A stretch of 64,000 nt of DNA. Source: Naegleria gruberi. Lineage: Eukaryota. The stretch lies in the NCBI GenBank assembly GCA_000004985.1, contig GG738867.1, one strand, 5' to 3'. The notes under the pieces were generated by a model. The model worked only from the letters and a program-made list of their open reading frames with translations. It searched no databases and had not been told where the DNA came from. Positions 20,826 through 53,553 of this stretch are shown in pieces (positions within the stretch are counted from its first letter, which is position 1; each line of letters begins with the position of its first letter). Made by a program: the position numbers and the translations under genes.

Positions 20826-20906
20826 GCAGACTTGGCCGAGAGGTTAAGGCGCGAGACTCGAAATCTCGTGGGGAAACCTTCGTAGGTTCGAATCCTGCAG
20901 TCTGCG
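20826..20906 (+). tRNA. tRNA-Ser: tRNA-Ser (anticodon CGA), long variable arm.
   Basis: Acceptor GCAGACT pairs with AGTCTGC, discriminator G. Anticodon loop is CTCGAAA. T-arm is GTAGG-TTCGAAT-CCTGC. 3' flank is TCTGAAATTTTG (Pol III T-run). Confidence 0.9.
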
Positions 20907-21075
20907 TCTGAAATTTTGATTGTATTTTTTCTAATCTCTTTTTTCAGATAACTGACCTTAAATCCATGTTTCTAATGGTGGATCAAAAAACTACAAGGGT
21001 GGTTTGATGAAAATTGTTTAATAAAATTGTTTTAAATAAATTTTTTTTGATTCAAATAGAAAAAAATTTAAGGGA

Positions 21076-21678
21076 ATGGTTTTTGAAAAATCACAATACT
21101 ATTCCACTCTTGTTTGCTCTCCAGCTCCAACGAACAAACTCTCATTTTCGCAATTTGTAAAAGATTTTAGTAGATATACTTGGTCAGCCATTTGCACCGG
21201 ATTTGGACCATTTGCTGGTACTTTATTTGGTGGTTGGTTCATCACTAGACAACAATCAGAGTTTGAATTGAATAGAAAAATGGCCCAAGAAGCCTCTCAT
21301 TTGGAAGGACAAATTATAAAGAAACACACAGCTTATAGTAAATGCATGGGTGAGATTAAGGCCTTTGAATTGAAGGTTGGTCACTTGGATTATGCAGAAG
21401 TATTTTCGAAAAAGATGAAGGAGAGTCCAAGAGATCTAGAAATTACAAGAATTAATGAGTGCAGAGGATTGACAATAGATTGGTGGGAGATGGTTCAAAC
21501 TTTCCACACAAGGTATGGCATAGAGCCTGAATTGAAAAGAGAAAGATATAACGAACGATTTCAACATTTCAAAACACTTGTCGGTCCTCTTGATAGGTTA
21601 TTGGAAGGCAGAAACGATTTATTGAACACAATTTATCACTTTGATCCCTCAAAGCCAAGAAGTGAGCCTCCAAAATAA
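21076..21678 (+). CDS. Hypothetical small membrane-anchored protein.
   Basis: 200-aa ORF with one N-terminal Gly-rich hydrophobic segment (YTWSAICTGFGPFAGTLFGGWFI) and a charged helical remainder. Confidence 0.45.
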   Translation: MVFEKSQYYSTLVCSPAPTNKLSFSQFVKDFSRYTWSAICTGFGPFAGTLFGGWFITRQQSEFELNRKMAQEASHLEGQIIKKHTAYSKCMGEIKAFELKVGHLDYAEVFSKKMKESPRDLEITRINECRGLTIDWWEMVQTFHTRYGIEPELKRERYNERFQHFKTLVGPLDRLLEGRNDLLNTIYHFDPSKPRSEPPK

Positions 21679-21962
21679 TGACATTGGTTCAATTATTTAA
21701 ATAAATGGTGGGAAATTTGGTGCGCTCTGGAAACCCTGCAGTGTGAAATGTTACTGTTGTGATATTCATGGTTGTTAATCTGTACTTTAATTTCATTAGA
21801 ATTTATAGGATTGAAATCCTGACCTTTCTCGGGATTCACTTTCTATAGAAGGTGGTTTCAATCTTCTGATACATTACCAATCATACTAAATGTTAGAGAA
21901 TCATCTTTGATCTCAACTGAACCTTAATTTTATATTTCAAAGTAAATTGATTTTTGAAAGAC

Positions 21963-24900
21963 TTAATGTTTCACTTTATTAACCATTTTTTTATCCTTTT
22001 TCATTTTGAGATCCTCTTTTACCTCTTTTAGCTTCTTAACAAGCTCATCAAAGTCCTTAATTCCATTGGAGAGATCTAAGTTATTGCATTTTCTTCCCTT
22101 TGGAGATTTTTGTTTTTTGCAAGGAGAACCACCACCACTACTTGTTGCATTTCTATTAGGACTACTACTAGTACATGATGCTGTATTGCTATTATTTTGA
22201 ATGGTGATAACTGCTTGTGATGATGGTACCTCATTTCCGCACATTGGGGTTGCTTGTACTGTTAGAGTTTCTTCTGTTTCTTGTCTTGGAGATGAGTCTT
22301 GCTTTGGAATGTCTTGTTCTATCTGGTCTTGAACATCTTTATACAAGGTCAGAGTTTCCATAACTGTTGGAATATTTGGATTAATATAATATGGACCAGT
22401 GGATGTACTGTCGATATTTACACCTAATTTCATGGAATGATTGTTTTCCTCGAATGAAAATTCTTGTGAATTTGAGGAATGTTCAATGTAATCATATGAG
22501 ATGGGTTGATCCAATTGAGTAATAATAATGGTTTCAGTTACATTCTTTTCTTCCTGTTTTGGAATGGTTTCCCATGAAACAAGTTCAAAATTCTCATATG
22601 ATTCTTCGATTTCTTTCGTTTCTACTGTAGGGTCAATTGTTTCATTAATAATATCAGATGAAAAGGCTTCTAATTTGCATAATGCATCATAGAGATGGTC
22701 CTGAACCAACGAAATGTCAAGTTTTAGCATTTGTTCAACATTTCCATTCTCCTCTGTCAATTGATACAAAGCATTAATTTTGTCAATTGTTTCAGTATTT
22801 GCACAAGCGGCTATTTTGTCAACCATTACCCCAGTTTCAGATCTGACTAGTTCTTTGAGAGTTTCGTTTGTTCCGTTTTCAATTTGCTTCTTTGCTATTG
22901 ATTTCACACATGTTGTGGGTTCAATTTCTTGATTCTTATCATTAATCTTTGCTACAAACTTGCAACAAAGTTCATTATTGAATTTCATCACTTCCTCTCT
23001 TGATGGAAGATTATTAAGGGAAGTTTCCAATTTTCCAAGATTAACATTCTCTTTAATAATCTGTGAAATATTATTTTGTAAATCATCCACATATTGTTTA
23101 ATCTTGGTATCCACTTCCTCTTTTGTAGCTATCATCTTGATCTCATCAGTTAATGTTGCTAATTCGGATTGGTTGGTGTCTAATTTGTGAGCTATTTCAT
23201 CTGCAACAAGTTGTTGAAGAGTGTCAAGTGTGCTCTTCATTTCTTTATGGAGATTCTTTTCACTTGAATTAACAAGCTCATTTGTTTCATTGATGGACTT
23301 GCCAAGATGTTCAAAATGTGTTGAAAGGTGATTATCTAGTAAATTCGTTGTTTCAAATTTGGTCGAAATGAAATTCTCCAGATTATCAACTTTGGTGCGG
23401 AGTGCTTCATGTTTTTCTGAAATGATTTGATTTGTTTCACTAATCATTGTTTGAAGTGAATCTTTAAGAGTTTCTACAAATGTTTGCTTAGTTTCGTTAA
23501 GCATTGTTGGAAGATTGTGTAATGGTTTAAGATATGTATTGGATGTTTCTTTTGAAAGATTTTCCAAATCTGAAACATTCTTTGTTAATTTCGAAAGAGT
23601 ATGGCTTGATTCTGTAACTATTTTTGTGGATTCAGTTATAGACTTCTGGTTCTCTTCAACTGTTTTGTTTGTTTTTTCAAGCGTTGTTTGAAGAGTTTCT
23701 AATGGTTGTTTAATCTGGTTGACCACTTCCTCTTCGGTAAGTATCATCTTTACCTCTTCAGTTAATTGATTCAATGCAGAGGTTACAGAGTTATGAGTTT
23801 CTTTGCTATTAGTCAAAATACTATTATTAAATCTTTCCAATTTGGAAACTACCAAATCAGTGGAATCCTTTCCAACACTTGAAATGAATTTCTCAAGATT
23901 ATCAACTTTAGAACAAAGTGCACTGCTGAACTCAGTTATTCTAAAGCGTTCTAAAGTGGTAGTTGCACTAATCAAACCTGTCAATTTTGAGGCGACAGAG
24001 TTCTGGTTCTCTACAATGGCTTGTTTGGATTCATTAAGAAATGTTGGAAGATTTTCCAATGGTTTTAGATATTTCTTGGTAGTTTCTAATTGTTGTTCAG
24101 TAATCTTTCCCATATCTTTTTCTATTATATCCAAACTGGAGTTTACAATTTCCTGATATAGTTTCAAAGTTTCCATTTCTGATTCTAATGTGGAAACTAT
24201 GGTCGAACTTTCTTTGGTAACAATCTGTTGGACACTTTCAAGTTTGCTCTTCATTTCTTTATGAAGCACTTGATTCGTATCATCAATCTTTGCTACAAAC
24301 TTGCAACAAAGTTCATTGTTGAATTTCATCACTTCCTCTCGTGATGGAAGATTATTAAGGGAATTTTCCAATTTTCCAAGATTAACATTCTCTTTAATAA
24401 TCTGTGAAAGATTATTCTGTAAATCATCCACATGTTTTTTAATCTTGTTGACCACTTCCTCTTCGGTAACTATCATCTTGACCTCTTCAGTTAATTGATT
24501 CAATGCAGAGGTTACAGAGTTTTGAGTTTCTTTGCTATTAGTCAAAATACTGTTATTGAATCTTTCCAATTTGGAAACTACCAAATCGGTGGACTCCTTT
24601 GCAATCTTGGTAATTGCTTCAGTTTGACTCTTACCAACCCTTGAAATGGAATTCTCAAGATTATCAACTTTTGAAGAAATTTCAATTATTCTTCTATTGG
24701 TTTCTTCAATCTTTTTCGTTTCAACAAGATTTGACTCTAAATTGGTAGAAATGGATTTCTCAAGATTATCAACTTTAGTGCTGAGTGTTTCGTGTTCTGC
24801 TGAAATGATTTGATTTGTTTCATTAACCATTGTTTGAAGTGAATCTACAAACATTTGCTTAGTTTCGTTAAGCATTGTTGGAAGATTTTCTAATGATTTA

Positions 24901-26273
24901 AGATAGGTACTAGATGTTTCTTTTGAAAGACTTTCCAAATCTGAAACATTCTTTGTTAATTTCGAAAGAGTTTGACTTGATTCTGTAACTATTTTTGTGG
25001 ATTCAGTTATAGACCTATGGTTCTCTTCCACTTTTTTGTTTGTTTTTTCAAGCAGAGTTTCTATTGGTACAAGATATTTCTTGGCTGTTTCTAATTGTTG
25101 TCCAACATCTTTTGCTATTGTATCCAAACTGGAGTTTACAGATTCATGATATAGTTTCAAAGTTTCCATTTCTGATTCTAATCTAGAAGCTATGGTTGAA
25201 CCTTCATTGGTAACAATTTGTTGGACACTTTCAAGTGTGCTCTTCATTTCTGTATGGAAATTCTTTTCACTTGAATCAACAAGCTCCTTTATGAGTTGGG
25301 TAATGTTCTTATCCAAGTCGTCATGTTTTTTTTCAAGCTGGTGACCAAGTTTAACAGCGCCAAGGAAAGAATTGGCAATTTTTTCTTCAAGATATTTCTT
25401 TGTATTTTCTAGTTCTGAACTTTGATTTGTAGTATTCTTATTGACAGTAGAAACTAAGTCTGAAACATAGTTCCCCAATGTTTGTGTTTCTTTCTTAATT
25501 TCTGTTATCCTTTCACATTGGGAGCTATGAAGAGAAGTGACCTCCCATTGGAGTTTGTACCAAAACATTGCGATTGCTATCAAGAGTACTGAGAAGGGTA
25601 CTATTTGCAAACTATTAGATGAATAGTTTGAGGAACTTGATTCAGGGTTACTAAGGAATGAATAAAAGTTAGACAATTCGGCACCAATGAGTGGTAGATT
25701 CTCTGTTTTACCAAATTGACTCTTGATCCAATAAACTATCTCGTCTTTGGAATCTTTTCTCAAAAAGTTGTCAATAACATTTGGTTTTAGTTGATAACTC
25801 TTTGAAAAGTATGAAACTGAAAAGTATTCAAGCAGCTTTCTGACAATTGCTGAAGATTGATCACTTCCAAACTTGGTTGTGATATGATACTCTTTCTCCA
25901 GCACTGACACATTAGCCTTGATCATGAAGGGATTAAAGAACAAGTCCTTCTTGGCCATCTGCTTGTGAACAGTCATGGCATCTTCCTTATTAAGTGAACA
26001 GAAATCCTTAGTGTTGATCACTTGTTGGGAGATGTGATTATCAAAGATTGATGCCGAAAGCTGACCACTCTTGAAACAATCAAAATTGAAGCAGAATTCT
26101 TGAAGGGATCTAATGTTCCTCTCATAGAGAATGTTCTTAATAATTCTGGAGCAACAGGTGCTGTGAGGATTGAAGGTACATTCTGATAGGACGTCCTCCA
26201 CTTTCTTGGCTTGCGAGATTTTGCTGCCGAAAAACAAGATTACAAGCAGTAGGAGAAGGATCTTTGCGATCAT
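21963..26273 (-). CDS. Giant (1436 aa) signal-peptide plus transmembrane coiled-coil protein with internally duplicated modules.
   Basis: N-terminal MIAKILLLLLVILFFGSKISQA (signal or anchor). A Cys-containing about 200-aa domain follows. TM segment LQIVPFSVLLIAIAMFWYKL. Then about 1000 aa of heptad-like E/K/T/S-rich coiled coil containing repeated modules (TDLVVSKLERFNNSILTNSKET..., VDDLQNN.SQIIKENVNLGKLE...CCKFVAKI.D). A basic Cys-containing tail closes the protein. Confidence 0.7.
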   Translation of the reverse strand: MIAKILLLLLVILFFGSKISQAKKVEDVLSECTFNPHSTCCSRIIKNILYERNIRSLQEFCFNFDCFKSGQLSASIFDNHISQQVINTKDFCSLNKEDAMTVHKQMAKKDLFFNPFMIKANVSVLEKEYHITTKFGSDQSSAIVRKLLEYFSVSYFSKSYQLKPNVIDNFLRKDSKDEIVYWIKSQFGKTENLPLIGAELSNFYSFLSNPESSSSNYSSNSLQIVPFSVLLIAIAMFWYKLQWEVTSLHSSQCERITEIKKETQTLGNYVSDLVSTVNKNTTNQSSELENTKKYLEEKIANSFLGAVKLGHQLEKKHDDLDKNITQLIKELVDSSEKNFHTEMKSTLESVQQIVTNEGSTIASRLESEMETLKLYHESVNSSLDTIAKDVGQQLETAKKYLVPIETLLEKTNKKVEENHRSITESTKIVTESSQTLSKLTKNVSDLESLSKETSSTYLKSLENLPTMLNETKQMFVDSLQTMVNETNQIISAEHETLSTKVDNLEKSISTNLESNLVETKKIEETNRRIIEISSKVDNLENSISRVGKSQTEAITKIAKESTDLVVSKLERFNNSILTNSKETQNSVTSALNQLTEEVKMIVTEEEVVNKIKKHVDDLQNNLSQIIKENVNLGKLENSLNNLPSREEVMKFNNELCCKFVAKIDDTNQVLHKEMKSKLESVQQIVTKESSTIVSTLESEMETLKLYQEIVNSSLDIIEKDMGKITEQQLETTKKYLKPLENLPTFLNESKQAIVENQNSVASKLTGLISATTTLERFRITEFSSALCSKVDNLEKFISSVGKDSTDLVVSKLERFNNSILTNSKETHNSVTSALNQLTEEVKMILTEEEVVNQIKQPLETLQTTLEKTNKTVEENQKSITESTKIVTESSHTLSKLTKNVSDLENLSKETSNTYLKPLHNLPTMLNETKQTFVETLKDSLQTMISETNQIISEKHEALRTKVDNLENFISTKFETTNLLDNHLSTHFEHLGKSINETNELVNSSEKNLHKEMKSTLDTLQQLVADEIAHKLDTNQSELATLTDEIKMIATKEEVDTKIKQYVDDLQNNISQIIKENVNLGKLETSLNNLPSREEVMKFNNELCCKFVAKINDKNQEIEPTTCVKSIAKKQIENGTNETLKELVRSETGVMVDKIAACANTETIDKINALYQLTEENGNVEQMLKLDISLVQDHLYDALCKLEAFSSDIINETIDPTVETKEIEESYENFELVSWETIPKQEEKNVTETIIITQLDQPISYDYIEHSSNSQEFSFEENNHSMKLGVNIDSTSTGPYYINPNIPTVMETLTLYKDVQDQIEQDIPKQDSSPRQETEETLTVQATPMCGNEVPSSQAVITIQNNSNTASCTSSSPNRNATSSGGGSPCKKQKSPKGRKCNNLDLSNGIKDFDELVKKLKEVKEDLKMKKDKKMVNKVKH
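22900..25300. repeat. Intragenic mosaic duplications at about 95% nucleotide identity. For example, 22961-23190 and 24301-24530 are near-identical, offset by 1341 bp.
   Basis: Direct comparison of the two stretches shows only scattered substitutions. Antisense ORF-track artefacts 22960..23190 and 24301..24498 encode near-identical peptides. The protein-level modules recur in a different order, so this is not a simple tandem array. Confidence 0.7.
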
Positions 26274-29251: not shown

Positions 29252-29879
29252 ATGAGCTTAAAGTCATCACAGCATCATAACGGATCATCAGCAACATCAT
29301 CTTCTAATAATCAATCATCACAACAACAACGATTATATGTCCGATATGTAGGTTTATAGTCGTTATATTAAATTATTATAATTTAGAAAAAATTAATTTA
29401 ATATTATTTTGATTAGTATGTTGGACATAAGGGAAAATATGGTCATGAATTTTTGGAAATTACTTTTCATCCCGATGGTTTATTAGAATATAAAAATAAT
29501 ACAGATTATAAAGGAGAGGGAGAAATATTGAAAACTGTAAATTTAAATAATATTGTGTTGGAGCAATTAAAGACAATAATTTTGGAATCACGTATTATGG
29601 AGTAAGTTTTGGATGTTAAATTTGGATATTAATCTGATGAATAGAGAAAGTGATCGAAAGTGGCCACTACCAGACAATATTGGAAAATCAGAATTGGAAA
29701 TTGTATTAGATAAGGAACACATTTCATTTGCCACCACTAAAATTCAAACTCTTTCCGAAGTTACCAAATCACATGATCCAGAAGGATTGAAGAACTTTTA
29801 TTATTTAACAGCTGATTTGAAAGATTTTGCACTCAACCTCATCAATATGCATCATAAACTCAAACCAATTCTGTACTAG
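29252..29879 (+). CDS. mago: Mago nashi (exon-junction complex subunit). Three exons: 29252..29347, 29417..29601, 29645..29879.
   Basis: Spliced translation gives ...[27 protein letters not shown]...LKTVNLNNIVLEQLKTIILESRIME-ESDRKWPLPDNIGKSELEIVLDKEHISFATTKIQTLSEVTKSHDPEGLKNFYYLTADLKDFALNLINMHHKLKPI. This matches the Mago nashi family essentially end to end. Introns are GTAGGT..TTAG (69 nt) and GTAAGT..ATAG (43 nt). Confidence 0.85.
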
Positions 29880-29944
29880 TAAAACAACAAATATCAAACA
29901 AATCCTGGTCGAGCATTCTTGCCTTAATTCCATTAATACTCGTA

Positions 29945-30025
29945 GCAGACTTGGCCGAGTGGTTAAGGCGACAGACTTGAAATCTGTTGGGGAAACCTTC
30001 GTAGGTTCGAATCCTGCAGTCTGCG
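29945..30025 (+). tRNA. tRNA-Ser: tRNA-Ser (anticodon UGA).
   Basis: Same scaffold as the Ser-CGA gene at 20826. The acceptor, T-arm, variable arm and 3' flank TCTGAAATTTTG are identical. Differences are confined to the D-loop and the anticodon stem-loop (CTTGAAA). Confidence 0.9.
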
Positions 30026-30157
30026 TCTGAAATTTTGTTTTAAGATATTCTAATATTTGTAACTATTGGTCTTTGTTTTTTACAATCGGGCATTTAAAGG
30101 ATTACAAAATTACTATCCAATTCTCCATCCGAAGCAGAATTGAAAGTATAAAAAAAA

Positions 30158-31200
30158 ATGCAACAAGAACAGGAGGAGGGTGATACATGTTTCGAAAGCG
30201 AACATGAGTACATCACCACACAAGATGGCTACAAAGTGTCTGGTACCTTGTTCTTTCCCATTCAACGTCATCTTGTAATTGATGAACACATGAAGACAAC
30301 TGTCATTTTATTAAGTGGAGCTATGGGAGTTCCTTCTAAATTTTATAGAGAATTTGCTAGATTTCTATGTGGAAAAACAAAATGTGTGATATCTACAATC
30401 GATTATAGANNNNNNNNNNNNNNNNNNNNNNNNNNNNNNNNNNNNNNNNNNNNNNNNNNCCATTCCAGGACTTTATTTATATTGGACACTCAATTGGTGC
30501 TCAAATACTGGCCTATTTCCCACCAGAATACTTGAAAAAACTGAGAGGAACTCTCCTAGTAGCGACACAAAGTGGTGCCCTTAAACATTGGCCATTAATT
30601 CGTCAGAGGGCAGAGTTGTACTTTTATTGGTATGTTTTTCTGCCGAGCATGACCATGCTGTATCCAAGGGAGGTTCCATTATTTGGTGTGGATAATCGAA
30701 TAATTTCAGATTGGTATGGAGCTGGTCGATGCCACAACAAGTATTTATTCGAATATTTTAATATTGGAGATGCAAAGGTTAATTCGAAACATGTATCTTG
30801 GATTTTACAAGACAAACCAGTGGTTGTATATAATGTAGATAATGATAAGTTTGCACCATATGATGCAACCATGTGGCTGACCAGAACATTTACTGAACCA
30901 AGTTTTGTTTCTGATTTGAAAATGGAATATTTCAATGACAAGTCAAAAGCTCTGCAAATAATGGATTTGAAATTTGATGGAAATGATAGAAAATTGGGAA
31001 CATTTGGAGGAAAACAAAAGATATTTTACTGTATTCGTGGCCAAGTTGCTAAAAATATTGGACATTTTAACTTTTTTAGGGAAAAGGAGGGAAAGAATGA
31101 ATGTTGGCCTCACTTGCTATCCCATTGTTTAGATTTATTAAATAATTGTGAAAATGATGATACATTAAATCCACCAACCACAAGACATAGTAAACTTTGA
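30158..31200 (+). CDS. Alpha/beta-hydrolase fold serine hydrolase with C-terminal PTS1 (-SKL), interrupted by an assembly gap.
   Basis: GHSIG nucleophile elbow (YIGHSIGAQ). C-terminal ...TTRHSKL*. Paralogue of 45097..46455. The frame changes across the 50-N gap (ORF-track 30158..30535 and 30532..31200). Confidence 0.65.
30410..30459. other. Assembly gap (50 N).
   Basis: Run of exactly 50 N characters inside the hydrolase CDS. Confidence 1.
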
Positions 31201-31221
31201 AGTGACGAGTTGGGCTTATGG

Positions 31222-31245: not shown

Positions 31246-31251
31246 AACTGG

Positions 31252-36904: not shown

Positions 36905-39900
36905 ATGAATGTCTTCAATGCCATGTTCCAGACGAGAAAGGCTCCATCGTCGGCCACTGGAACCACTCAAGCCATGCATGTATTTTACATGTTGTCAATG
37001 GAAAAGATTTTGAAGAATTTAGTGAAGAAACAAACCGATTTGAAGAATGCTTGCCAAGAAGTTATGGGTATGTTTTGTTAGGGAGACTTTTTAGTTAATC
37101 AATAATCATTATTGTCATTAATTAAATTAACCTTCATTCACAAATAACAATGGAATAATATATAGATGTTATTAAAAAGTTGGAAAAGAACGAAGCCGAC
37201 GTTCTTAGGGATATTTCTGAAAATCCAAATAGATACTTTAAACCTTTGGAATTAGCTTGTGCAACCAAAAAACCAACAATAGTAGAACCGGCATTGGATT
37301 GTCTTCATAAATTGATGGCTTATGGATATATTGATAGTAAAATACCATATGAAGGGAAAACTGATCTTTTAATTGATGTTGTTGTTGCTACAATTTCTAA
37401 TTGTTTTGATCCAACACAAGACGACAATGTTCAATTACAGATCATCAAGGCCCTTCTTACAGCAGTTACATCATGTGATATCCATGGAAGGAGCTTGAGA
37501 TTAACCGTAAAGACTTGTTTCAATATTCATCTAGTTTCAAAGAATGAAATTAATAGAAAGACAGCACAAGCAACTCTCAACCAAATGTTGAATATTATTT
37601 TCCAAAGAATGGAATCAAAACCACCAAAAGCTAAACAACAAGAAGCTAATCAAGAAAATGTTCAAGATGAGAGTGCTCTTGCACAACTTCAGGAGGAAAA
37701 ACCAACAGAGGATTATATTAATGAATTTGTTGATGGAATAATAGATGACGTTGCCCAACAAATTTTGGAACAACAACAATATGATCTTGAGAATGAGGAG
37801 GATGACGAACCTATGGATGTTATTGAAAGTGAAAATAATGGAGAGTCATCGGATAAAACAAATACACGTAAGAGATCGGTTTCAGATGCTGATCACGAAC
37901 CAAACGCTCCAATTTTTGACAACCAATACCAAAAAGATGCTTTCTTTATATTTAGAGCATTATGTAGATTAGCCATGAAGCAACTCCCTAAGAAGTATGT
38001 TTTTGTTATTACAATTTATTAATTTAAATTAACAATTTAAAAACCTAGTCCAACCCCAGACTCCTTGGAACTTAAAAGTCGTTTACTTTCTCTTGAATTA
38101 ATTCACAACGTTTTGGAAAACAGTGGACCAGTGTTTAGAACATCTGAGACTTTCATTTCGGATATCAAGCAATTTTTGTGTTTATCACTTTTGAGAAATT
38201 GTACAAGTCCAGTTCCACCAATCTTTTCTCTTTCATTGTCCATTTTTAAATCCCTTGTTAAATATTTCAAAGTTAATCTGAAAGGAGAAATTCGTTTGTT
38301 CCTGACAAACTTTTTGCGTATCTTACACAGTGAAAATAGTACATATCACCACAAGATGTTGGTAATTCAGGTTTTGAGTTTTATTGCTCAAGATTCACAA
38401 ACATTATTGGATATTTTCGTTAACTATGATTGTGCTTTGGACTCTTTGAATATTTACGAACAAATTGCTAGTGAATTGTCAAACGTTGTACAAAACTTAC
38501 AAGCTGAAGGAGAATGGATGACACCTACACAAGAACTTAAATTAAAGACAGCATCTTTGAATGCTTTGGTGTCTGTTTTGGAATCACTTGTAAAGTGGAT
38601 GAATGAAAAGCAAGGTGAATCATCAGAGGAACTTAATAATCAATCCGAAGAAATGACTGAAGGTGAATACTTTGAAAAGCAAAGAAACATGAAGATTGGT
38701 CTGAAAGAAGGTATCAAACTTTTCAATAGAAACCCAAAGAAAGGTATCAAGTACCTTGTTGAAATTGGAAAACTTCCAGATCCTGAAAAAGTCGACAAGA
38801 CTGAATATGCTACCTCTGTTGCTAAGCTTTTATATAATACTGAAGATTTTTCAAAGAAGTTGATGGGTGAATTTATGGGTGAACAAGTTAATAGTGATAT
38901 TCTCCATGCCTTTACTGAATTACAATCATTTGCTGGTCTTCCATTCGATAAGGCATTCAGAAATTATTTGAATACATTCAGACTTCCAGGTGAAGGCCAA
39001 CAAATTGACAGAGTTGTCCAAAAGTTTGCTGAAAAGTACTTTAAGGATAACGGAAAGTCACATGTTTTTGCCAATGCTGATGCTTGTTACGTTTTTGCTT
39101 ACTCTGTAATTATGTTGAATACCGAATTGCACAACCCTGCTTTCAACTTCCGTGAAAGAATGTCTCTTGAAGCTTTCATTGCTAACAATAAGGGTATCAA
39201 TGATGGTGGTGATATTGACCACAAGTACCAAGAGTCTATCTATGGAAGTATTAAGAATAATGAAATTAAATTGAAGGGAGATGAAATGGAACAAATTGTG
39301 CAACAATCCCAAGATAAAACTCAACTTACAGCTCAACAAAATCCAAGAAAGAAGCGTATGTTGTTCACTTTGGAAAGCGAAAAGCTCGAAAAGGAAACAA
39401 GAAACTTGTTGAAATCAAGTCAATCACAGAGTGATTCTGATGATCAATTCTTCAGTGCTAATCACATTACTCACGTAAGAAGTATGATGGAAACAACCTG
39501 GGAATTTTTCAAGGAAGGTCTCAAGGCTACTTTGGAAAAGGACAAGTTTGCTGATACTAAGGTCCATGACAATTGTCTCAGAGGTTTGGAATATGCTATT
39601 CACATTACTAGCCGTTTTGATATGCCAACTGAAAGATTGGCTTTTGTTCAAACATTGTGTCACTTTACCAAATTGACCATTTCTGAAAAGGAATATGAAG
39701 CTCAAAATGATCCAAATCATATCCACCAAAATCCAGATACTCTCAAGAACAGATATATTATGCAAGATAGACACATCAAGGCTATCAAGATACTTCTCAA
39801 GATTGCCGAATTAGAAGGTAATTATCTTAAGGACAGTTGGGCCAATATTTTGGAATGTCTTTCTCAATTAGAAAGATTGCAATCTGATGTCCCACAAAAT

Positions 39901-41955
39901 CGTAACAAATCCAAGAGTGCTGCTAGATTAACTATTGAATTGACCCCAGAACAAATCAATTCTAATACCATCTTGAATAATAATATTGACCATCTTGTTA
40001 TTGATAAGATCTTTGTCAAGTCTGGTGAATTGAGTGATGATGCTATTGAAAGCTTTGTTAAGGGCTTGTGTGGCGTTTCTAATGATGAAATTAATCCAAA
40101 AGCTAATAGAATGACATGTACTGGTAACATTAATATTAATCCAGTACCAAGAACTTTCAGTTTGCAAAAGCTTATTGAAGTTGCTCACTATAATATTAAC
40201 AGAATCAAAATTGTTTGGTCCAAGTTGTGGGTTCACATGGGTAAACATTTCATCACTGTTGGTACACATGATGATTTGACTATTGCAATGAATGCTATTG
40301 ACTCTTTGAGACAACTTTCAATGAAATTCTTGGAACAAGACGAATTGGCTAACTATCACTTCCAACGTGACTTCCTCAAGCCATTCTTCCAAATTATTCA
40401 ACAAAGCAACAAGACTGAAATTAGATTACTCACTGTTGAATGTGTTGGTCAAATGATTTTGGGTAGATATAACAATATCAAGTCTGGTTGGAAGACAATT
40501 CTCCAAATCTTTGCTCAAGCAGCTTTGTGTGGATCACCAGTCACTGACGAGGGTTTTAGATATGTCACTGCAATGATGAAGGATGGTGGTGATGTTGATT
40601 ATTTCCATCAAATTCAACAAAACGAATCCTTTGTTGATTGTATCTTGTGTTTGACTGCTTTTGCTCGTAACTTGGCTAATACCAATATTTCCAAAAGTTC
40701 TATTGCACTTTTAAAGCTCTGTGCTCTTCATATTGTTAATAATAGAGTTGATGCTATCAAGAATGTTGACATTTACACTGATGAAGAAGTTCACTTCAAG
40801 TTGTGGTTCCCTATCTTGACTGGTCTCTCGCGATTGGTTAGTGACGATAGAAGAGAAGAAGTTAGAGCTAATGCTTTGAAGACTCTCTTTGAAGAAGTTC
40901 TCATTAACAGAAAGATTGGTGACAGATTCTCTCCAAAGCTTTGGAATTTCGTTTTCACTGGAGTTCTTTTCCCAATATTTGACGAAATCAAGCAAGCCAA
41001 TATCACTGATGAAAGCTGGATCAATACTACTTGTAGAAAATCCTTGAGCTTGATGGTCACATTATTTGCTCAATACTTTACATCCATTCCACAATTATTC
41101 GACAATATTCTCACCTTGATTAGTTCTCATTGTTTCTTTAGAGTTGAAGAGGATCAAGTCAATCAAAATACTGACTCTCCTTTGGTTGTTGAAAAGAAGA
41201 TTAAGAATGAAAAGCTTGCTGAAATTGGTAACGAGTCATTCAAGATTTTTGTTCAATTATGTGGTAAATTATTCAATGACCAACAATGGGATGCTGTTTG
41301 CAGAAGTTTGGAAAGTATTCTCACCATCAACCTTAAACTTAAGTCACCAATCGATAGCAGAATCCGTTTGAAGATTATTGAAACAACTAACGATATTCTC
41401 ACTACTCAATTCGATAACATGAAACTTGTTCACATTGAAAGTATGCTTGATTCATTGTTGAATTGTCATAACACCTCATTGGAATTCAACTCCAAGCAAA
41501 AGGGTAATGCTGAAAATGATTACGAGATTGAAATTGAAATGTTCTCCTGTACTGTTTATGTTAATATCTGTTCCAAGTTGTGCTCATCACCAAAAACAAC
41601 CGAAGAACTCTCTAAACGTCAAGAAGTTGGAGAAAATAGAATTATTGAGATTACCGAAAGAACTTTCATCAGATATTTACAACATATTGGTATTTTACAA
41701 TATTCTGGTAGTAATGCTGATTTAGATATTCAACAAGATACTGTCTTGTGTGGTAATAGATTAATGTCATCATTGGTTCCAACAGTTGTTTCTCTCCTCG
41801 AAGTTTACCTTTCATTCCCTGAAGAACAATTCCTCAAATACTTACCTAAATTCTACCCTCTTTTCACTAAATTATTGCTGACGCAACACAGAGAAATCAG
41901 ATTAGTTCTCCTTGACTTGTTCACTAGATTTGGTAAACAAGTTCTTTTGAAATAA
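36905..41955 (+). CDS. SEC7: Sec7-domain Arf guanine-nucleotide exchange factor, BIG/Sec7p class. Three exons: 36905..37067, 37166..37994, 38049..41955.
   Basis: Sec7 catalytic domain ...FRLPGEGQQIDRVVQKFAEKYFKDN...ADACYVFAYSVIMLNTELHNPAF has the catalytic Glu in the PGE motif. DCB/HUS-like N-terminal helical regions and long HDS-like C-terminal regions are present. Introns are GTATGT..ATAG (98 nt) and GTATGT..CTAG (54 nt). Confidence 0.8.
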
Positions 41956-45096: not shown

Positions 45097-46455
45097 TTAC
45101 AACTTGCTTGATCTGGCAGGGAAGGGATTGTTTGGAGAAAGGAGTGGATTGCTGGTTGAGTCAACTTTTGGAGATTCCAATAATTCCAAACAGAGTTTCA
45201 AGAGGTGTGGCCAACATTCGTCCTTTCCTTCCTGTTCTCTGAAGAAATTAAAGTGTCCAATCTTTTTGGCCACCTTTCCATGGATATAGTACATTCTCTT
45301 TTGATTTCCTCCAAATGATTTGATATCTGGTTCGTCATTTTGGAAAGTAATTCGTTTCTTGGTGATGTTTGTTGATTTTCCATTCAAATGTTGGAGTTTC
45401 AGATTTGAGATAAATGTTGGATCAGAGATGGATCTTAATAGCCACAAACTAGCTTGAAATGGAGCATAGAAATCATTCTCAATCACATAGGCAATCATTG
45501 CCTTATTTTGTAGAGCCCAAGAGGGATGTTTAGGATTGATTTTTGCTTCCTCAATTCCAAAATATTCGAAAATATAATTTGTGTTACATCTTCCGGCTGA
45601 GTACCAATCGGTGACCAATTGATTGGCTACATTAATAGGTGGAGTTTCCATTCGATAGAGTGTAGTCATGGTTGGTAGCATGATGTACCAATAAACATAG
45701 AGCAAGAGTCGTGGAATGATCCATGGCCAATGCTGAGCCACACCACTCTGTGAAGCAATCATGATAGTTCCCTTAAATTTACACAAATATTCATTTGGAC
45801 AATAGGCCAATACCTGCCCACCAATTGAATGAGCAATATATACAAATTCATTAATTGGTTTCACTCCATTAACACACTCTCCTCTCAATTTAACATCCAA
45901 ATTATTGCTTTCACATTTCAATAATTTATCCAATGATGAATTTTCCAAATAATCCATCACAGCAGGTAAATCAAATCTTCCCCAATTTACAATCGTTACA
46001 AATTTCTTTTGAATTTCCAAGAATATTTCCCTCTCACTCTTTCCTTCATCAAACTTGACACCATCAATTGAATCTTTTGTAATTCTCGATTTGAAACATC
46101 CTCTAAAATCAAAACTCATTACAATACATTTAGTATTCAAACATAAAAACCTGGCAAATTCTCTATAAAATCGAGATGGTACTCCCATCGCTGATCCTAT
46201 CACAATAGCACACTCTCTCAAATTATCATCTAGTATTATAACTTCTCTCAATGATGATGATGCAGATTTTGTATTTTCCTTTTCGTTATTAGCATTGATT
46301 GAAGTATTTTCCGATGATGAAATTTTCCTAAGGATCGGAAAAAAAATTGTTCCTGAGAGTTTGTATGAATCTCTGGTAATGATTTGGTGATGGCATTCGA
46401 GACAATCCACAGTGGTAGTTGGGAGTGAGGTGGAATCTGTGTCGTGTTGTGACAT
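45097..46455 (-). CDS. Alpha/beta-hydrolase fold serine hydrolase with C-terminal PTS1 (-SKL), paralogue of 30158..31200.
   Basis: AHSIGGQ nucleophile elbow. Shared blocks with the paralogue: GVPSRFYREFARFLC, HWPWII/HWPLI, DWYSAGRC and KIGHFNFFREQEGKDECWPHLL. Ends ...ARSSKL*. Confidence 0.7.
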   Translation of the reverse strand: MSQHDTDSTSLPTTTVDCLECHHQIITRDSYKLSGTIFFPILRKISSSENTSINANNEKENTKSASSSLREVIILDDNLRECAIVIGSAMGVPSRFYREFARFLCLNTKCIVMSFDFRGCFKSRITKDSIDGVKFDEGKSEREIFLEIQKKFVTIVNWGRFDLPAVMDYLENSSLDKLLKCESNNLDVKLRGECVNGVKPINEFVYIAHSIGGQVLAYCPNEYLCKFKGTIMIASQSGVAQHWPWIIPRLLLYVYWYIMLPTMTTLYRMETPPINVANQLVTDWYSAGRCNTNYIFEYFGIEEAKINPKHPSWALQNKAMIAYVIENDFYAPFQASLWLLRSISDPTFISNLKLQHLNGKSTNITKKRITFQNDEPDIKSFGGNQKRMYYIHGKVAKKIGHFNFFREQEGKDECWPHLLKLCLELLESPKVDSTSNPLLSPNNPFPARSSKL

Positions 46456-46596: not shown

Positions 46597-46677
46597 CGCG
46601 GTCTACAGGATTCGAACCTGTGCGGGTCGCCCCAATTGATTTCTAGTCAATCACCTTAACCACTCGGTCAAGACCGC
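46597..46677 (-). tRNA. tRNA-Ser: tRNA-Ser (anticodon AGA).
   Basis: Reverse complement folds as follows. Acceptor GCGGTCT pairs with AGACCGC, discriminator G. Anticodon loop CTAGAAA. Long variable arm. T-arm CAGG-TTCGAAT-CCTG. 3' T-run. Confidence 0.9.
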
Positions 46678-49501: not shown

Positions 49502-49574
49502 TAATCAACCTAATATTATTCATCAACCAATTACACCAGCAACCATTGTAAAAATCATCCCAATATCTTCAACA

Positions 49575-50269: not shown

Positions 50270-50340
50270 TGCATTAGCCGGGAGTCGAACCCGGGTCACC
50301 AGCTTGGAAGGCTGGTATGATACCGTTACACTACTAATGC
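50270..50340 (-). tRNA. tRNA-Gly: tRNA-Gly (anticodon UCC).
   Basis: Reverse complement is GCATTAGTAGTGTAACGGTATCATACCAGCCTTCCAAGCTGGTGACCCGGGTTCGACTCCCGGCTAATGCA. The acceptor stem is perfectly paired and the anticodon loop is CTTCCAA. Confidence 0.9.
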
Positions 50341-50581
50341 TTCTTGCTAACAATTTTCAAAATATGGATTTTAAAAACTGCACTTCTTACGAATTTGGAA
50401 TGTTTGTTGAGCATTCTAATTTCTGTCAAAAGTTCGGTTGTAGGCTTACTCTTTGTGATTATGTTTGTTTCATTGTATACGAAATAACTTGGATACTACA
50501 AATAGGCTAAATATGACACAACCTTATCCTACCATTTGTGGAACAGAAATCATCGATTTAACGAACAGATTGGCCTAGCAA

Positions 50582-51568
50582 ATGTCATCTCCATTCAAAA
50601 AAATGAAACAATTAACATTTAAACTATTGATCTGTGCACTCTTTATTCTCTATTGTAGTTGCTCCATGGCTATGGCTGGTCGTGGTAGTGGAGGAAGCTC
50701 AGGTAGAAGTTCTGGAAGTAGTGGTGGTTCTAGAAGTGCTGCCTCAAGAACTACCAGATCAGCTAGTTCTGCTCCAGGGAGAAAGTCAACTACCAAGTCA
50801 AGATCTGGAACTGCAGCTAAAAAGTCCACCAAGCCATCTAAAAAAACAAGAACAACAAAACTGGTCAAAGGAGATGCACTCACTACAGGAAAATCAACAG
50901 TGGTTGTGAAGAAGGGTGACACTGTGAGTGAAATTGCATATAAACTTGCCAAGGAGCGTAATATTCCTTTCAAGGAAATGTATAAGGCAGTATATGAAGC
51001 CAACAGTAAATTACTTGGAGATAGAACTCAATTGTTTAACAAGTATGGTGCCAAGATGAGATTGCATGGTAAATTGGGTGATTTCAAGTTTAGAGATGCT
51101 ATCAAACCAGGTGATGTTTTGAATTTACCAACTTTGGGATTGAAACCAGAAAATCCAAATGGTGACAAACCTGGCAAGGGAGATCAACCAAATAATGGTG
51201 ATAAGCCTAGCAATGATAAGCCAAGCAACAACGTTGATCAGCCAAGTAATGCTGATAAACCAGACAATGGAAACAAACCAGATATTGCTCAGCCTGACAA
51301 TGGCAAGCCAGAAATCATTCCTGAAAAACCAAACAATGGTAACACTCCAGATAGTGGAAATATTCCACCTCACAGAGGTATTCCACCAATCATTGATGTT
51401 ACTCCAAAGATACCAATCTCATATCCAAAGAATCCAACTCCAATCAAACCACTTCCTATCAATAACAATGGTAAGAAACTGGTTCTCAGACATGCTAGAC
51501 TCAGAGGAAGAGGGGTTTTCATTAAGGTCAATGTTAACATTAATGGTCAACCAAATAAACTAGATTAG
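50582..51568 (+). CDS. Secreted LysM-domain protein with a Gly/Ser-rich linker and Pro/Asn/Asp-rich repeats.
   Basis: Signal peptide MKQLTFKLLICALFILYCSCSMA. LysM-like block VVKKGDTVSEIAYKLAKERNIPFKEMYKAVYEAN...IKPGDVLNLP. C-terminal reiterated NGDKP / SNDKP / DNGKP repeats. Confidence 0.6.
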   Translation: MSSPFKKMKQLTFKLLICALFILYCSCSMAMAGRGSGGSSGRSSGSSGGSRSAASRTTRSASSAPGRKSTTKSRSGTAAKKSTKPSKKTRTTKLVKGDALTTGKSTVVVKKGDTVSEIAYKLAKERNIPFKEMYKAVYEANSKLLGDRTQLFNKYGAKMRLHGKLGDFKFRDAIKPGDVLNLPTLGLKPENPNGDKPGKGDQPNNGDKPSNDKPSNNVDQPSNADKPDNGNKPDIAQPDNGKPEIIPEKPNNGNTPDSGNIPPHRGIPPIIDVTPKIPISYPKNPTPIKPLPINNNGKKLVLRHARLRGRGVFIKVNVNINGQPNKLD

Positions 51569-51752
51569 TTTTATTGAAATCTAACACTTATATGTCGTAT
51601 TGTAAATATTTTGAAGTAGGAGCAGAGTTGAAAACATAATATTGTTCCTGCTGCCATACTTGAGCTGAAATTCAATAGAGTTAGATGTTGTTGACTAAGC
51701 ACCGATTCTAGGAAGAATATCAGCATTACTGTATCTGTGACAATTTGAAAGG

Positions 51753-53330
51753 TCAATAAAATCTTCTGAACTTGGAAGGAGGAGCAATCATCCCTCCTCC
51801 ACCGAAGAAATGTGAATGTTGGAGGAATGTGACAGGAATATTCCCATCTTCTCTAATTCTTTTGAATTGTATCGTTTGTTCAGTGTTATGTAGCCCTCTA
51901 ACAGAAACGGTTTGATTTGTAACACTTTGAATATATTGAGCTTTCTTTTCTTCCAATTTTTTCTTATATGCATCCTTTTCATTTGTTGGCAGCTCTTTCC
52001 ACATTTTGCTAACCATTGACACAATCTCTTTTCTGGATTTATCTGGATTTTCTATAAGCATTTTTGGCTTGACAATATTGGTATAATAACTGTAAGCTGT
52101 TTTTTCTGGTTGCTCTATATTTCTGATTTTCTGCCCTTGACTAATTTCGAACATTCGATTCATTATTATGAACATGTCTTCTAGCATTAATGAAATGTCT
52201 TGAGTAATTTCTTTTTCATTGAAACAAGTATTAATATAATGAGTTGTTGAGTCAGTACTGACTGTGGCAGTTGTCAAACCATTTAACAGAGTTTCATTAG
52301 GAGTGGCATTATTATAAAATAATACATTTCCATCATCTTTGAAAATGATGACATTTTCGTAGATTTCTCCAAATATATAATTCTGTGAATCTCTAAACAT
52401 GTTGTATAATTTTGCCTTTCTCAAATTACAACTAACTTCATTATGTTGATAATAGGGAATATAATTTAAACATCTATGAATATTTGAAATAAGTGTTTCC
52501 TTACAACCACTGGTTTGAATTGCCCTTAAACCTGATTCACATAATTCTGATTCCAATTGTTGTAAATCACCTCCAGGGAAGTATTCCTTGTAAGAATTCA
52601 TTAAATCTTCCATTTTAGTCTTGACTTTAAAATTATATCCTTCATAGACAACTAATGCACCACGTAAAATACTCAATAATTGGAAAAAGTTATCAGTAAA
52701 GTTTAGATTAGGATATATCGACAAGTAAGCTCTCCTAATGGCTCTCATGGCAATTTGATTCAAAGTTGCTTGATCCTTAGCATTACTTTTCAAATGCTTC
52801 ATGAAACTTGTACAAGGACTGTCCTCTCCCGTCATTATATAATATTCATCATCAGAAATATCATCATCATCATCTCGGATTCTAAATACAACATGGTTAT
52901 CAGAAAATGTCTTCAAATGAGCTTCTTCATCTTCTTCATCTGAATCGAAATCATCATAATCATTCGTGAATGTATTCAAGCCTTCATCCATAGCAAAATC
53001 CATGTATGGATTAAAGTTGTATCTATTCCTTTTCTTCCTCTTCTCGGGCCGAGTTACTGCAGCTACAATACCTGCATCAGGTGCAAAAGGTAATACAGTA
53101 TCACTACCACCACACAAACAATTTACATAATACAATTTACAAAAACGTTCGGAGAAGAGTAATTCCTTCCACAACTTGTTGACCATCCACAATGGAGCAA
53201 ATTTATAATTCTTTTTTTCTCCTTTACATTCTACAGTATTAAAAAAGACATATTTTGGATGTATAAAGGAAAGTACATTGAGTATGAGTGGTTCTTGTTC
53301 AAACCATTCATAGGAGAGTGAAGAAGACAT
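51753..53330 (-). CDS. HMG-box DNA-binding protein.
   Basis: C-terminal HMG box EKTAYSYYTNIVKPKMLIENPDKSRKEIVSMVSKMWKELPTNEKDAYKKKLEEKKAQY. Preceded by an acidic region (DFDSDEEDEEAH). Confidence 0.6.
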   Translation of the reverse strand: MSSSLSYEWFEQEPLILNVLSFIHPKYVFFNTVECKGEKKNYKFAPLWMVNKLWKELLFSERFCKLYYVNCLCGGSDTVLPFAPDAGIVAAVTRPEKRKKRNRYNFNPYMDFAMDEGLNTFTNDYDDFDSDEEDEEAHLKTFSDNHVVFRIRDDDDDISDDEYYIMTGEDSPCTSFMKHLKSNAKDQATLNQIAMRAIRRAYLSIYPNLNFTDNFFQLLSILRGALVVYEGYNFKVKTKMEDLMNSYKEYFPGGDLQQLESELCESGLRAIQTSGCKETLISNIHRCLNYIPYYQHNEVSCNLRKAKLYNMFRDSQNYIFGEIYENVIIFKDDGNVLFYNNATPNETLLNGLTTATVSTDSTTHYINTCFNEKEITQDISLMLEDMFIIMNRMFEISQGQKIRNIEQPEKTAYSYYTNIVKPKMLIENPDKSRKEIVSMVSKMWKELPTNEKDAYKKKLEEKKAQYIQSVTNQTVSVRGLHNTEQTIQFKRIREDGNIPVTFLQHSHFFGGGGMIAPPSKFRRFY

Positions 53331-53472
53331 TTTTTTTCAATATTTATTTTTAATAAGAAAAATTTCAATTCATTTGCTTATATTCTTAAATCAATTTGCT
53401 TAATCGATTGTAAATAAGCATATTCGATGCACTTTTCCTCATGTTTGCTTTTGATAAAATTAAAATTTCAGA

Positions 53473-53553
53473 CGCAGACTGCAGGATTCGAACCTACGAA
53501 GGTTTCCCCAACAGATTTCAAGTCTGTCGCCTTAACCACTCGGCCAAGAATGA
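53473..53553 (-). tRNA. tRNA-Ser (UGA)-like copy with a degenerate 5' acceptor strand. Probable tRNA pseudogene or duplication breakpoint.
   Basis: Positions 8-81 are identical to the Ser-UGA gene at 29945, including the 3' flank TCTGAAATTTT. The first 7 nt read TCATTCT rather than GCAGACT, so only 4 of 7 acceptor pairs can form. Confidence 0.5.

Follow-up and report, generated by a model that had tools for sequence, protein, structure and literature searches.

How four tRNA-Ser sequences came to lie within 33 kb of one another in the nuclear genome of Naegleria gruberi, and what has become of the one whose 5' end looks degenerate, are the questions raised by this locus. They were addressed in a 64-kb stretch of nuclear DNA (hereafter the window), by comparison of the four copies that it carries. 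In our opinion the set is highly probably a lineage-specific local family, transcribed by Pol III and formed by DNA-level duplications in both orientations, in which the copy with the altered 5' end is a pseudogene produced by deletion.

tRNA-Ser sequences in the window

All four sequences were found at the positions given in the original prediction. Three of them, tRNA-Ser(CGA) (20826-20906, plus strand), tRNA-Ser(UGA) (29945-30025, plus strand) and tRNA-Ser(AGA) (46597-46677, minus strand), are intact genes recognised by ARAGORN, with scores of 59.7, 64.3 and 61.1 bits, respectively, against the Rfam tRNA model and with 23/23 tested pairs formed in each. The minimum-free-energy fold is a cloverleaf for both Ser-CGA, an intact class II tRNA, and Ser-UGA. 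The fourth sequence (53473-53553, minus strand) is referred to below as the third copy. As read from the sequence, the genes are 81 nt long, have no encoded CCA, contain an A box TGGCCGAGTGG and a B box GGTTCGAATCC assigned according to the established consensus, and are followed within 12 nt by a run of four or more T residues. The final base is G73 in 4/4 sequences, and the Rfam alignment shows an inserted extra arm of 11 nt, which forms the long variable arm. In the variable arm, G73, boxes and T-run these genes match eukaryotic class II tRNA-Ser genes with type 2 Pol III promoters, and differ from them only in Ser-CGA, where D-loop position 16, inside the A box, is A instead of T. When pairing was tabulated for the four copies, 96.7% of cells held a standard pair and seven pairs were altered on both sides. 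The sole unpaired cells are those of the third copy at pairs 1-72, 4-69 and 5-68 (standard tRNA numbering; alignment columns 1-80, 4-77 and 5-76).

A total of 924 tDNAs has been reported for N. gruberi (PMC2888827). The window contains six, four of which are Ser genes. In a genome of ~41 Mb this number corresponds to ~1.4 expected tDNAs per 64 kb, so that six observed represent an excess (Poisson P ~0.004). No further tRNA-like relics were detected in the window by a permissive Rfam scan, and no other duplicated segments tied to tRNAs were revealed by self-blastn and tblastx of the window. Sub-threshold Rfam matches (Plastid-ycf2 antisense to tRNAs, MIR1887, CRISPR-DR2 and others) were discarded as noise. 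The open reading frames 29827-30030 and 53468-53710 do have in common the peptide ...RVVKATDLKSVGETFVGSNPAVCV, as noted originally, and are artefacts of reading through tRNA genes. Two other open reading frames, of 452 and 525 aa, are 100% identical to N. gruberi proteins, and eukaryotic domains encoded in the window include myosin head, Mago nashi, HMG box and Sec7.

Inverted duplication of a tRNA-Ser gene with its neighbour

Ser-AGA had been regarded as unrelated in sequence to the other copies, a view that does not hold: it is identical to Ser-UGA at 63/81 positions (78%), and among the 18 differences every one located in a stem keeps pairing. The relationship extends to the neighbouring genes. 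A protein gene without assigned function begins 132 nt downstream of Ser-UGA (30158-31200, plus strand; split by a 50-N assembly gap at 30410-30459), and its paralogue, encoding 452 aa, begins 141 nt downstream of Ser-AGA (45097-46455, minus strand), both distances being measured from tRNA to ATG. The product of the latter is 100% identical to an NCBI entry 'predicted protein [Naegleria gruberi]', and no Pfam family was found in it. BLASTP aligned the products of the two genes with 51% identity over 238 aa (E 5e-98), and their N-terminal parts with 38% identity (E 1e-24), while at the nucleotide level blastn aligned 30469-31113 with 45849-45205 (65.6%). In addition, three inverted repeats link the Ser-AGA unit with the unit at 29945-31200.

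Thus, tRNA and gene are collinear in the two units, with the same order and spacing and in opposite orientation. Because both tRNAs sit just upstream of paralogous genes in mirror orientation, the units Ser-UGA plus gene and Ser-AGA plus gene are the mirror-image products of an old inverted segmental duplication. This event would have copied a unit of ~1.7 kb composed of a tRNA-Ser gene and the protein gene downstream of it, after which the stems of Ser-UGA and Ser-AGA would have diverged only by changes that preserve pairing. Homologues of the 452-aa protein are present in N. lovaniensis, in Willaertia magna and in a Naegleria-like Logan contig, where they have other neighbours and no tRNA-Ser, and therefore no synteny is available to date the duplication. 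Likewise, neither flanking gene has a homologue with an adjacent tRNA-Ser in N. lovaniensis, Willaertia, or Logan and metagenome contigs.

Relationship of Ser-CGA and Ser-UGA

The two genes differ, as had been predicted, only in the D-loop and the anticodon stem-loop, at 6/81 positions (16, 27, 28, 34, 42 and 43). Changes at 27/43 and 28/42 form compensatory pairs of the anticodon stem, and the remaining two are D-loop position 16 and anticodon position 34. As is established (see also PMC9976931), seryl-tRNA synthetase does not read the anticodon, and serine identity resides in the long variable arm and G73. For this reason a gene for one serine isoacceptor becomes a gene for another when position 34 is altered.

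The common 3' flank was also verified. The sequence TCTGAAATTTTG, which includes a T4 run resembling a Pol III terminator, directly follows both Ser-CGA (20907-20918) and Ser-UGA (30026-30037), with 12/12 positions identical. Had the trailer diverged to the same extent as the leader (44%), 0/12 differences would be seen with a probability of ~1e-3. Beyond the trailer, a manual count gave 12/20 identical positions downstream, and the motif TTCTAAT occupies +22 to +28 in both flanks. On the 5' side, a weak in-register similarity was observed between the leaders of Ser-CGA (20790-20825) and Ser-UGA (29909-29944), identical at 20/36 positions against a null mean of 10.0 (sd 2.75; P ~6e-4), which is suggestive of homology. 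A shuffle-based gapped local alignment gave P 0.4 for the same leaders, and P 0.03 for the unrelated control, Ser-UGA against tRNA-Asn. The entire segments 20790-20935 and 29909-30054 were grouped in one direct-repeat family, with 81% identity.

Since the flanks are similar in register, Ser-CGA and Ser-UGA are suggested to be DNA-level paralogues. The proposal of an anticodon shift after duplication is plausible, but the split is not recent, as is evident from the saturation of the leader and from the two compensatory changes in the stem. Shorter duplications, of ~150 bp or less and comprising leader, tRNA and trailer, would have generated Ser-CGA, Ser-UGA and the copy at 53.5 kb. No syntenic tRNA that could serve as an outgroup for the ancestral anticodon was found in N. 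lovaniensis, Willaertia or other contigs, and the anticodon may have changed in either direction.

Identity has been preserved across the tRNA body and 11-12 bases at the start of the trailer, whereas the surrounding flanks diverged by ~40-45%. This contrast points to gene conversion, selection on the trailer and terminator, or both. A related explanation would ascribe the near-identity of Ser-CGA and Ser-UGA to two old isoacceptor families evolving in concert across the genome, with no duplication and shift within the window. A family dispersed over the genome, every member of which had this leader and trailer, would give the same picture as local duplication. Two compensatory stem changes and a D-loop change alongside the anticodon are typical of established families, homogenisation of tRNA paralogues is known (PMC4981973), and the leader similarity is only moderately significant. 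On the other hand, flanks in register both upstream (20/36) and downstream (12/12 in the trailer, TTCTAAT at +22 to +28) indicate common descent of the loci, and four Ser genes in 33 kb are far above expectation. We therefore regard genome-wide concerted evolution as a serious but rather unlikely alternative to local duplication. The two explanations overlap, as the latter already includes conversion.

The third copy and its 9-bp deletion

Positions 7-81 of tRNA-Ser(UGA) are retained in the third copy (53473-53547, minus strand) with 100% identity to the gene at 29945 and with both A box and B box intact; position 6 (53548) is ambiguous. They are followed by the trailer TCTGAAATTTT (53462-53472, minus strand), which agrees with the trailers of Ser-UGA and Ser-CGA over their first 11 nt (11/12 nt). 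Identity to Ser-UGA and the common 3' flank are therefore as predicted, except that identity starts at position 6 and not at position 8. Altogether, 75-76/81 nt are identical to Ser-UGA, and as aligned the two sequences differ only at positions 1, 4 and 5. The statement that the first 7 nt do not pair with the 3' strand of the acceptor is correct in that three pairs are broken, but 4/7 acceptor pairs still form. ARAGORN makes no call for this copy. Its Rfam score of 44.4 bits is above the gathering score of 29 and ~20 bits below that of the intact copy, and its minimum-free-energy fold has no acceptor stem and is not a cloverleaf (z-score -0.8).

The differences are clustered: of 92 aligned positions, the first 5 contain all three (P ~8e-5 under uniform mutation), which is the mark of a breakpoint and not of decay. 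Similarity to the Ser-UGA locus does not stop at the ends of the mature tRNA, a possibility that the original prediction had singled out for checking. Upstream of the break, the leader of the third copy (53554-53581, minus strand) resembles that of Ser-UGA (TTCTTTCATAAATTCTACTTATTCT vs TTCTTGCCTTAATTCCATTAATACT) in a MAFFT alignment, a local alignment and blastn, with 18 of 25-26 aligned nt identical (shuffle P ~0.02; P 0.03 for the control, Ser-UGA against tRNA-Asn). A single gapped blastn match joins 29916-30036 to 53581-53462.

The intact state of the locus was found in contig L004, one short contig from a single sample (Logan ERR1078381), which ends at tRNA position 27, so that positions 1-27 are visible. 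It is identical to the window at 1086/1098 positions (98.9% over 1.1 kb) and probably represents the same locus in another strain, in a sister species or in the second haplotype. Its 5' end is intact, with ...AATCGTA followed directly by GCAGACTTGGCC; that is, it carries GCAGAC at the start of the tRNA and the leader CGTA, the TCGTA leader being the same as in Ser-UGA. Where L004 reads ...CTTTAACAATCGTA and then GCAGACTTGGCCGAGTGGTTAAGGCGA, the window reads ...CTTTATCATTC and then TTGGCCGAG, and 9 nt are missing between 53547 and 53548. In tRNA orientation, the 9-bp deletion at the junction (53547-53549, minus strand) can be written as GTAGCAGAC or, equivalently, as CGTAGCAGA. Leader positions -3 to -1 and tRNA positions 1-6 are lost, and what had been described as the first 7 nt of the third copy is mostly leader. 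In the 8 nt upstream of the junction there are two A-to-T substitutions, and two other 3-bp indels are present in the same 1.1 kb.

Since L004 has the 5' end of the gene intact at this locus, the lesion is taken as derived. Homology to a functional tRNA gene is thereby joined by a lesion that destroys the structure and by an intact counterpart at the locus, and the third copy is, as judged from these comparisons, a recent tRNA pseudogene that arose from a normal tRNA-Ser(UGA) gene by a 9-bp deletion. Between the two readings offered initially, pseudogene or edge of a segmental duplication, the former is favoured and the latter is contradicted by the intact L004 locus and by leader similarity that resumes upstream of the break. 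The deletion would have occurred in the reference lineage or haplotype. A recent event also explains why the 75 nt that remain carry no substitution. With its internal promoter and terminator remaining, the pseudogene may still be transcribed, and an RNA without an acceptor stem should be neither processed nor charged.

It could be argued that the third copy is intact in the organism and that the gap is an assembly error, or a minority haplotype picked in a heterozygous or polyploid strain. The presumed heterozygosity of NEG-M, the intact sequence in another sample at 98.9% identity and at least one assembly gap in the window (30410-30459) are in accordance with this. However, two adjacent substitutions and two 3-bp indels accompany the gap, which looks like real allelic or strain divergence more than a local base-calling error, and dropouts of 9 bp are unusual in Sanger sequencing of good depth, as was used for the reference. 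An intact third copy in the organism is for these reasons improbable.

Still less credit is given to a role for which the third copy would be kept, as a boundary or promoter-proximal regulator bound by TFIIIC or Pol III or as a source of tRNA-derived small RNA, or, more broadly, to a spread of the 924 tDNAs as ~150 bp leader-tRNA-trailer units by some uncharacterised short-patch duplication.

Origin as a truncated edge of a segmental duplication, or as a 5'-truncated retro-copy of a primary Pol III transcript, is hardly credible. Identity to Ser-UGA is indeed perfect between position 6 and the trailer T-run, exactly the point at which Pol III would terminate its transcript, and the 7-nt motif TTTATCA flanks the copy on both sides. 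Nevertheless, positions 1-6 and a Ser-UGA-like TCGTA leader in L004 and the similarity of leaders upstream of the break are contrary to both variants, neither poly(A) nor CCA is present, and a TTTATCA repeat is expected by chance in AT-rich DNA (an estimated ~0.2 per locus). A retro-copy is contradicted by L004.

A functional non-canonical tRNA or tRNA-like RNA, with alternative acceptor pairing or an incomplete acceptor stem, is equally implausible in spite of an Rfam score above the gathering threshold and perfect A box, B box, terminator, anticodon arm, variable arm and T arm, as 3/7 acceptor pairs are broken, the fold and ARAGORN speak against it, recency accounts for the lack of substitutions, and no alternative pairing exists, which accords with the original prediction: the 30 upstream nt are without G, and a 5' acceptor strand of the pattern G[CU][AG]G[AG][CU]U is therefore impossible.

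The deletion pseudogene lies in a 318-bp gap between divergently transcribed HMG-box and dual-specificity phosphatase genes. Searches with the HMG-box protein retrieved N. gruberi itself only, and the spacers upstream of distant DSP homologues (nine loci), 66-108 bp long, contain no tRNA. In a metagenome scan, the tRNA 3' half plus acceptor gave 0 matches and the 5' half gave 17, not one of which came from Naegleria, all being tRNA-Leu(AAG) genes within marine tRNA arrays of no relation to the locus.

Comparison with known tRNA gene families

The cluster fits the known dynamics of tRNA gene families, in which genes are duplicated locally, shift between isoacceptors, evolve in concert and decay to pseudogenes. 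Shifts of the isoacceptor type occur commonly among eukaryotes, with Ser among the affected families and D-loop position 16 among the covarying sites (PMC3923123). The Ser-CGA and Ser-UGA pair shares with described cases of tRNA remolding (Rogers & Griffiths-Jones 2014, PMC3923123) the paralogous Ser genes, near-identical bodies, the difference at position 34 and the change at position 16. Those shifts were established by orthology across close species, whereas in Naegleria paralogy is within a genome and is derived from flank similarity. Furthermore, two compensatory anticodon-stem pairs also differ in Naegleria, which makes the change more than a bare anticodon substitution.

Families of tRNA genes are subject to concerted or birth-death evolution and rapid pseudogenisation (PMC4981973). 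Local copies in both orientations, rapid turnover, absence of synteny with relatives, and paralogues kept identical with one copy recently disabled are shared by the Naegleria genes with systems of tDNA turnover (Bermudez-Santana et al. 2010, PMC2888827; Velandia-Huerto et al. 2016, PMC4981973). In the sense of PMC2888827, where a cluster requires distances below 1 kb, the Naegleria Ser genes would not form clusters, being 7-17 kb apart. In addition, decay is diffuse in those systems, in contrast to the defined 9-bp deletion and intact allele of the third copy.

By these comparisons, local duplication would be the source of tRNA-Ser isoacceptor genes in Naegleria, with an adjacent protein gene copied along in one instance. 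The third copy offers a clean example of the death of a tRNA gene, in which a small deletion at the boundary of leader and acceptor left the internal promoter in place and an intact allele is available for comparison. In annotation it should be flagged as a pseudogene; its significance beyond annotation is small.

Genomic setting of the tRNA-Ser genes

The window carries an ordinary, lineage-specific cluster of tRNA-Ser genes, one member of which has probably been inactivated by a deletion. Two minus-strand ORFs, of 452 aa (45097-46455) and 525 aa (51753-53330), are 100% identical to NCBI entries "predicted protein [Naegleria gruberi]" on a 424-kb scaffold. Eukaryotic domains occur in other ORFs of the window (myosin head, Mago nashi, HMG box, Sec7/BIG, Vps51/Sec5, and DUSP), and its GC content is ~33%. 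This places the tRNAs among the nuclear, Pol III-transcribed genes of a heterolobosean amoeba, and bacterial-type readings, such as integrase att sites, are inapplicable.

ARAGORN predicted five tRNAs in the window (Asn-GTT, Ser-CGA, Ser-TGA, Ser-AGA, and Gly-TCC), and the Rfam tRNA model recovered all of them together with a sixth match. Intact tRNA-Ser genes are located at 20826-20906 (CGA, plus strand), 29945-30025 (UGA, plus strand), and 46597-46677 (AGA, minus strand), while the sixth match, termed copy 3, lies at 53473-53553 (minus strand). Serine thus accounts for 4/6 of the tRNAs. We assume a genome size of ~41 Mb for N. gruberi. At that size and with 924 tDNAs counted in this species (PMC2888827), ~1.4 are expected per 64 kb versus the six seen (Poisson P ~0.004), indicating a real, if modest, enrichment. 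Spacing of the tRNA-Ser genes is 7-17 kb, beyond the <1 kb by which that survey defines tDNA clusters. A permissive Rfam scan and self-comparisons of the window disclosed no additional tRNA relics. Sub-threshold Rfam matches to 'Plastid-ycf2 5'UTR RNA' antisense to tRNA-Ser (20826-20907 and 29945-30026, minus strand; 31-32 bits, gathering score 65.7) are almost certainly spurious, reflecting tRNA-like sequence within that model.

Relationships among intact genes

Of 81 positions, six (16, 27, 28, 34, 42, and 43) distinguish Ser-CGA from Ser-UGA, all within the D-loop and the anticodon stem-loop as the original prediction had it; the common 3' flank it reported is also present, both genes being directly followed by TCTGAAATTTTG. 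Compared in register, the leaders share 20 of 36 nucleotides (null mean 10.0, sd 2.75; P ~6e-4), the trailers are identical (12/12), and TTCTAAT occurs at +22..+28 in both. When leaders were aligned locally with gaps and tested by shuffling, this pair reached P = 0.4 and an unrelated control (UGA vs Asn) P = 0.03. Similarity of the flanks supports, not overwhelmingly, descent of the two genes from one locus including flanks, i.e. DNA-level duplication. The proposed anticodon shift after duplication is plausible to this extent, but the split is not a fresh single-base shift, because it comprises two double compensatory changes (27/43 and 28/42) and a D-loop change. Position 16 in the D-loop is listed among sites covarying with isoacceptor shifts in PMC3923123, which counts 44 such shifts (41 of them eukaryotic) in families that include Ser. 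Given ~44% leader divergence, an unconstrained 12-nt trailer would stay unchanged with a probability of 0.56^12 ~1e-3, which argues that the trailer is either under constraint from 3' processing or termination, or converted together with the gene body.

Ser-AGA, previously regarded as unrelated, is identical to Ser-UGA at 63 of 81 positions. Differences are located in the anticodon, at four variable-arm positions, and otherwise in stems with pairing kept (six pairs altered on both sides, and one U·G changed to C-G). Furthermore, paralogous genes follow the two tRNAs, at 30158-31200 (plus strand), 132 nt after Ser-UGA, and at 45097-46455 (minus strand), 141 nt after Ser-AGA. They share 65.6% nucleotide identity (651 nt) and 51% amino acid identity (238 residues, E 5e-98), and their N-terminal regions also match. 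The two tRNA-plus-gene segments form an inverted duplication with a unit of ~1.7 kb. The 452-aa protein is closer to its N. gruberi paralogue (51% identity) than to its N. lovaniensis homologue (42%); the latter's locus has other neighbours and no tRNA within 10 kb on either side. The N. gruberi lineage is probably where this arrangement originated.

A 50-N assembly gap (30410-30459) breaks the gene at 30158-31200, so that the middle of the gene is absent and the ORF looks split. A Mago nashi homologue has its C-terminal exon at 29613-29879 (plus strand), ending 65 nt upstream of Ser-UGA; the match is limited to Pfam positions 66-142, indicating an intron upstream. The 3' intergenic space holding this tRNA is therefore very short.

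A 9-bp deletion in copy 3

Only positions 1, 4, and 5 distinguish copy 3 from Ser-UGA. Identity starts at position 6, instead of 8 as first described, and continues into the common downstream sequence TCTGAAATTTT. All three differences fall within the first 5 of 92 aligned positions (P ~8e-5 under uniform mutation), a clustering which is a breakpoint signature. Rfam scores it at 44.4 bits versus 64.3 for intact Ser-UGA and marks three acceptor pairs as non-canonical; the reported loss of pairing in the first 7 nt holds for these, yet 4/7 pairs still form.

On a Logan contig (L004, run ERR1078381), the phosphatase gene adjoining copy 3 (53648-54193, plus strand) has a homologue, P0005, at 99% identity. 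Aligned to window 53527-54627, L004 shows 1086/1098 identities and three indels, and represents the same locus, whether from a very close strain, a sister lineage, or a second haplotype. Read in tRNA orientation, it has ...TTATTCTTTAACAATCGTA up to the 5' junction and GCAGACTTGGCCGAGTGGTTAAGGCGA after it, versus ...TTATTCTTTATCATTC and TTGGCCGAG... in the window. The 9 bp absent from the window, GTAGCAGAC or CGTAGCAGA (1-nt ambiguity), are the final three leader bases and tRNA positions 1-6; TCATTCT, formerly read as the "first 7 nt", is leader -10..-4 joined to position 7. L004 terminates at tRNA position 27 (A27, a UGA-type base), probably because multi-copy tRNA sequence causes assemblies to break, and only this 5' part of the intact allele is visible.

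The leader of the intact allele ends with TCGTA, as does that of Ser-UGA. Farther upstream, beyond an 8-nt indel, the two leaders match at 18 of 25 nt, and a gapped blastn match links 29916-30036 with 53581-53462. Similarity to Ser-UGA, which includes the trailer, thus does not stop at the mature tRNA ends. Because homology extends beyond the break, both the edge of a duplication, one of the two origins initially offered, and a 5'-truncated retro-copy are ruled out.

Two A-to-T substitutions lie directly upstream, within 8 nt of the deletion (window 53550-53560, minus strand, TTTATCATTC; L004 31-40, TTTAACAATC), versus only three in the rest of the 94-nt spacer. This suggests that deletion and substitutions may be a single complex mutational event (e.g. 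error-prone repair), and not independent changes.

Functional consequences

Judged by the established consensus, the A box (TGGCCGAGTGG) and B box (GGTTCGAATCC) of copy 3 are unaltered, as is its T4 terminator, so the copy could still be used by TFIIIC and Pol III. Its transcript would be incapable of forming an acceptor stem, since pairing with AGUCUGC requires G at two positions and the 30 nt upstream contain none, leaving no alternative acceptor pairing. Neither the 81-mer nor the leader-to-trailer transcript has a cloverleaf as its minimum-free-energy fold, and z-scores are -0.8 to -1.0 versus -2.5 to -2.75 in the three intact genes. Of the origins initially offered, a pseudogene is retained, and copy 3 is best called a young, putative tRNA-Ser(UGA) pseudogene. 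Zero substitutions in its retained 75 nt and 11-nt trailer point to a recent lesion, or to homogenisation until recently. The two ORFs sharing ...RVVKATDLKSVGETFVGSNPAVCV are indeed read-throughs of tRNA sequence; overall, the original observation is largely correct and its interpretation half right.

All features of this family match the established picture of nuclear tDNA evolution, as outlined in PMC2888827, PMC4981973, and PMC3923123: duplicates arising locally or dispersed and in either orientation, paralogues kept identical by concerted or birth-death evolution, poor interspecies synteny, isoacceptor remolding, and frequent pseudogenisation. No observation here requires a new mechanism.

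Other observations

In the database searched, homologues of copy 3's HMG-box neighbour are confined to N. gruberi. Of two metagenome scans, one gave no match and the other unrelated marine tRNA arrays. In the latter, the tRNA 5'-half pattern matched tRNA-Leu(AAG) genes in extremely dense arrays from marine/polar JGI/TARA metagenomes (e.g. L016 1-5634, L027 1-5018, and L015 1-4147). Gene order is kept across 17 contigs (L011-L027), whose source organism is unrelated to Naegleria; in L016, 5.6 kb hold 34 tRNA genes, among them tRNA-SeC and neighbouring Ser-UGA, Ser-CGA, and Ser-AGA.

Within the window, a 1436-aa ORF (21963-26273, minus strand) has a signal-peptide-like N-terminus and internal repeats of ~75-230 nt (86-94% identity, 0.7-1.4 kb apart), and is probably a coiled-coil or surface protein grown by internal duplication. 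The 321-aa ORF at 18562-19527 (minus strand) has a hydrophobic N-terminus and a repetitive, Lys/Cys-rich sequence (KFKKF..C motifs); the adjacent ORF at 19768-20553 (minus strand), without a Pfam match, is also Cys-rich and secreted-looking. A BIG/Sec7-type ARF-GEF occupies two adjacent ORFs (37180-38022 and 38065-41955, plus strand) ~40 nt apart, most likely split by a short spliceosomal intron. Adjacent genes at 54650-56833 and 57087-59075 (plus strand), with Pfam Pkinase and TPR matches, look like tandem paralogues, tblastx aligning 54654-54896 with 57087-57317 and 55745-55804 with 57813-57872.
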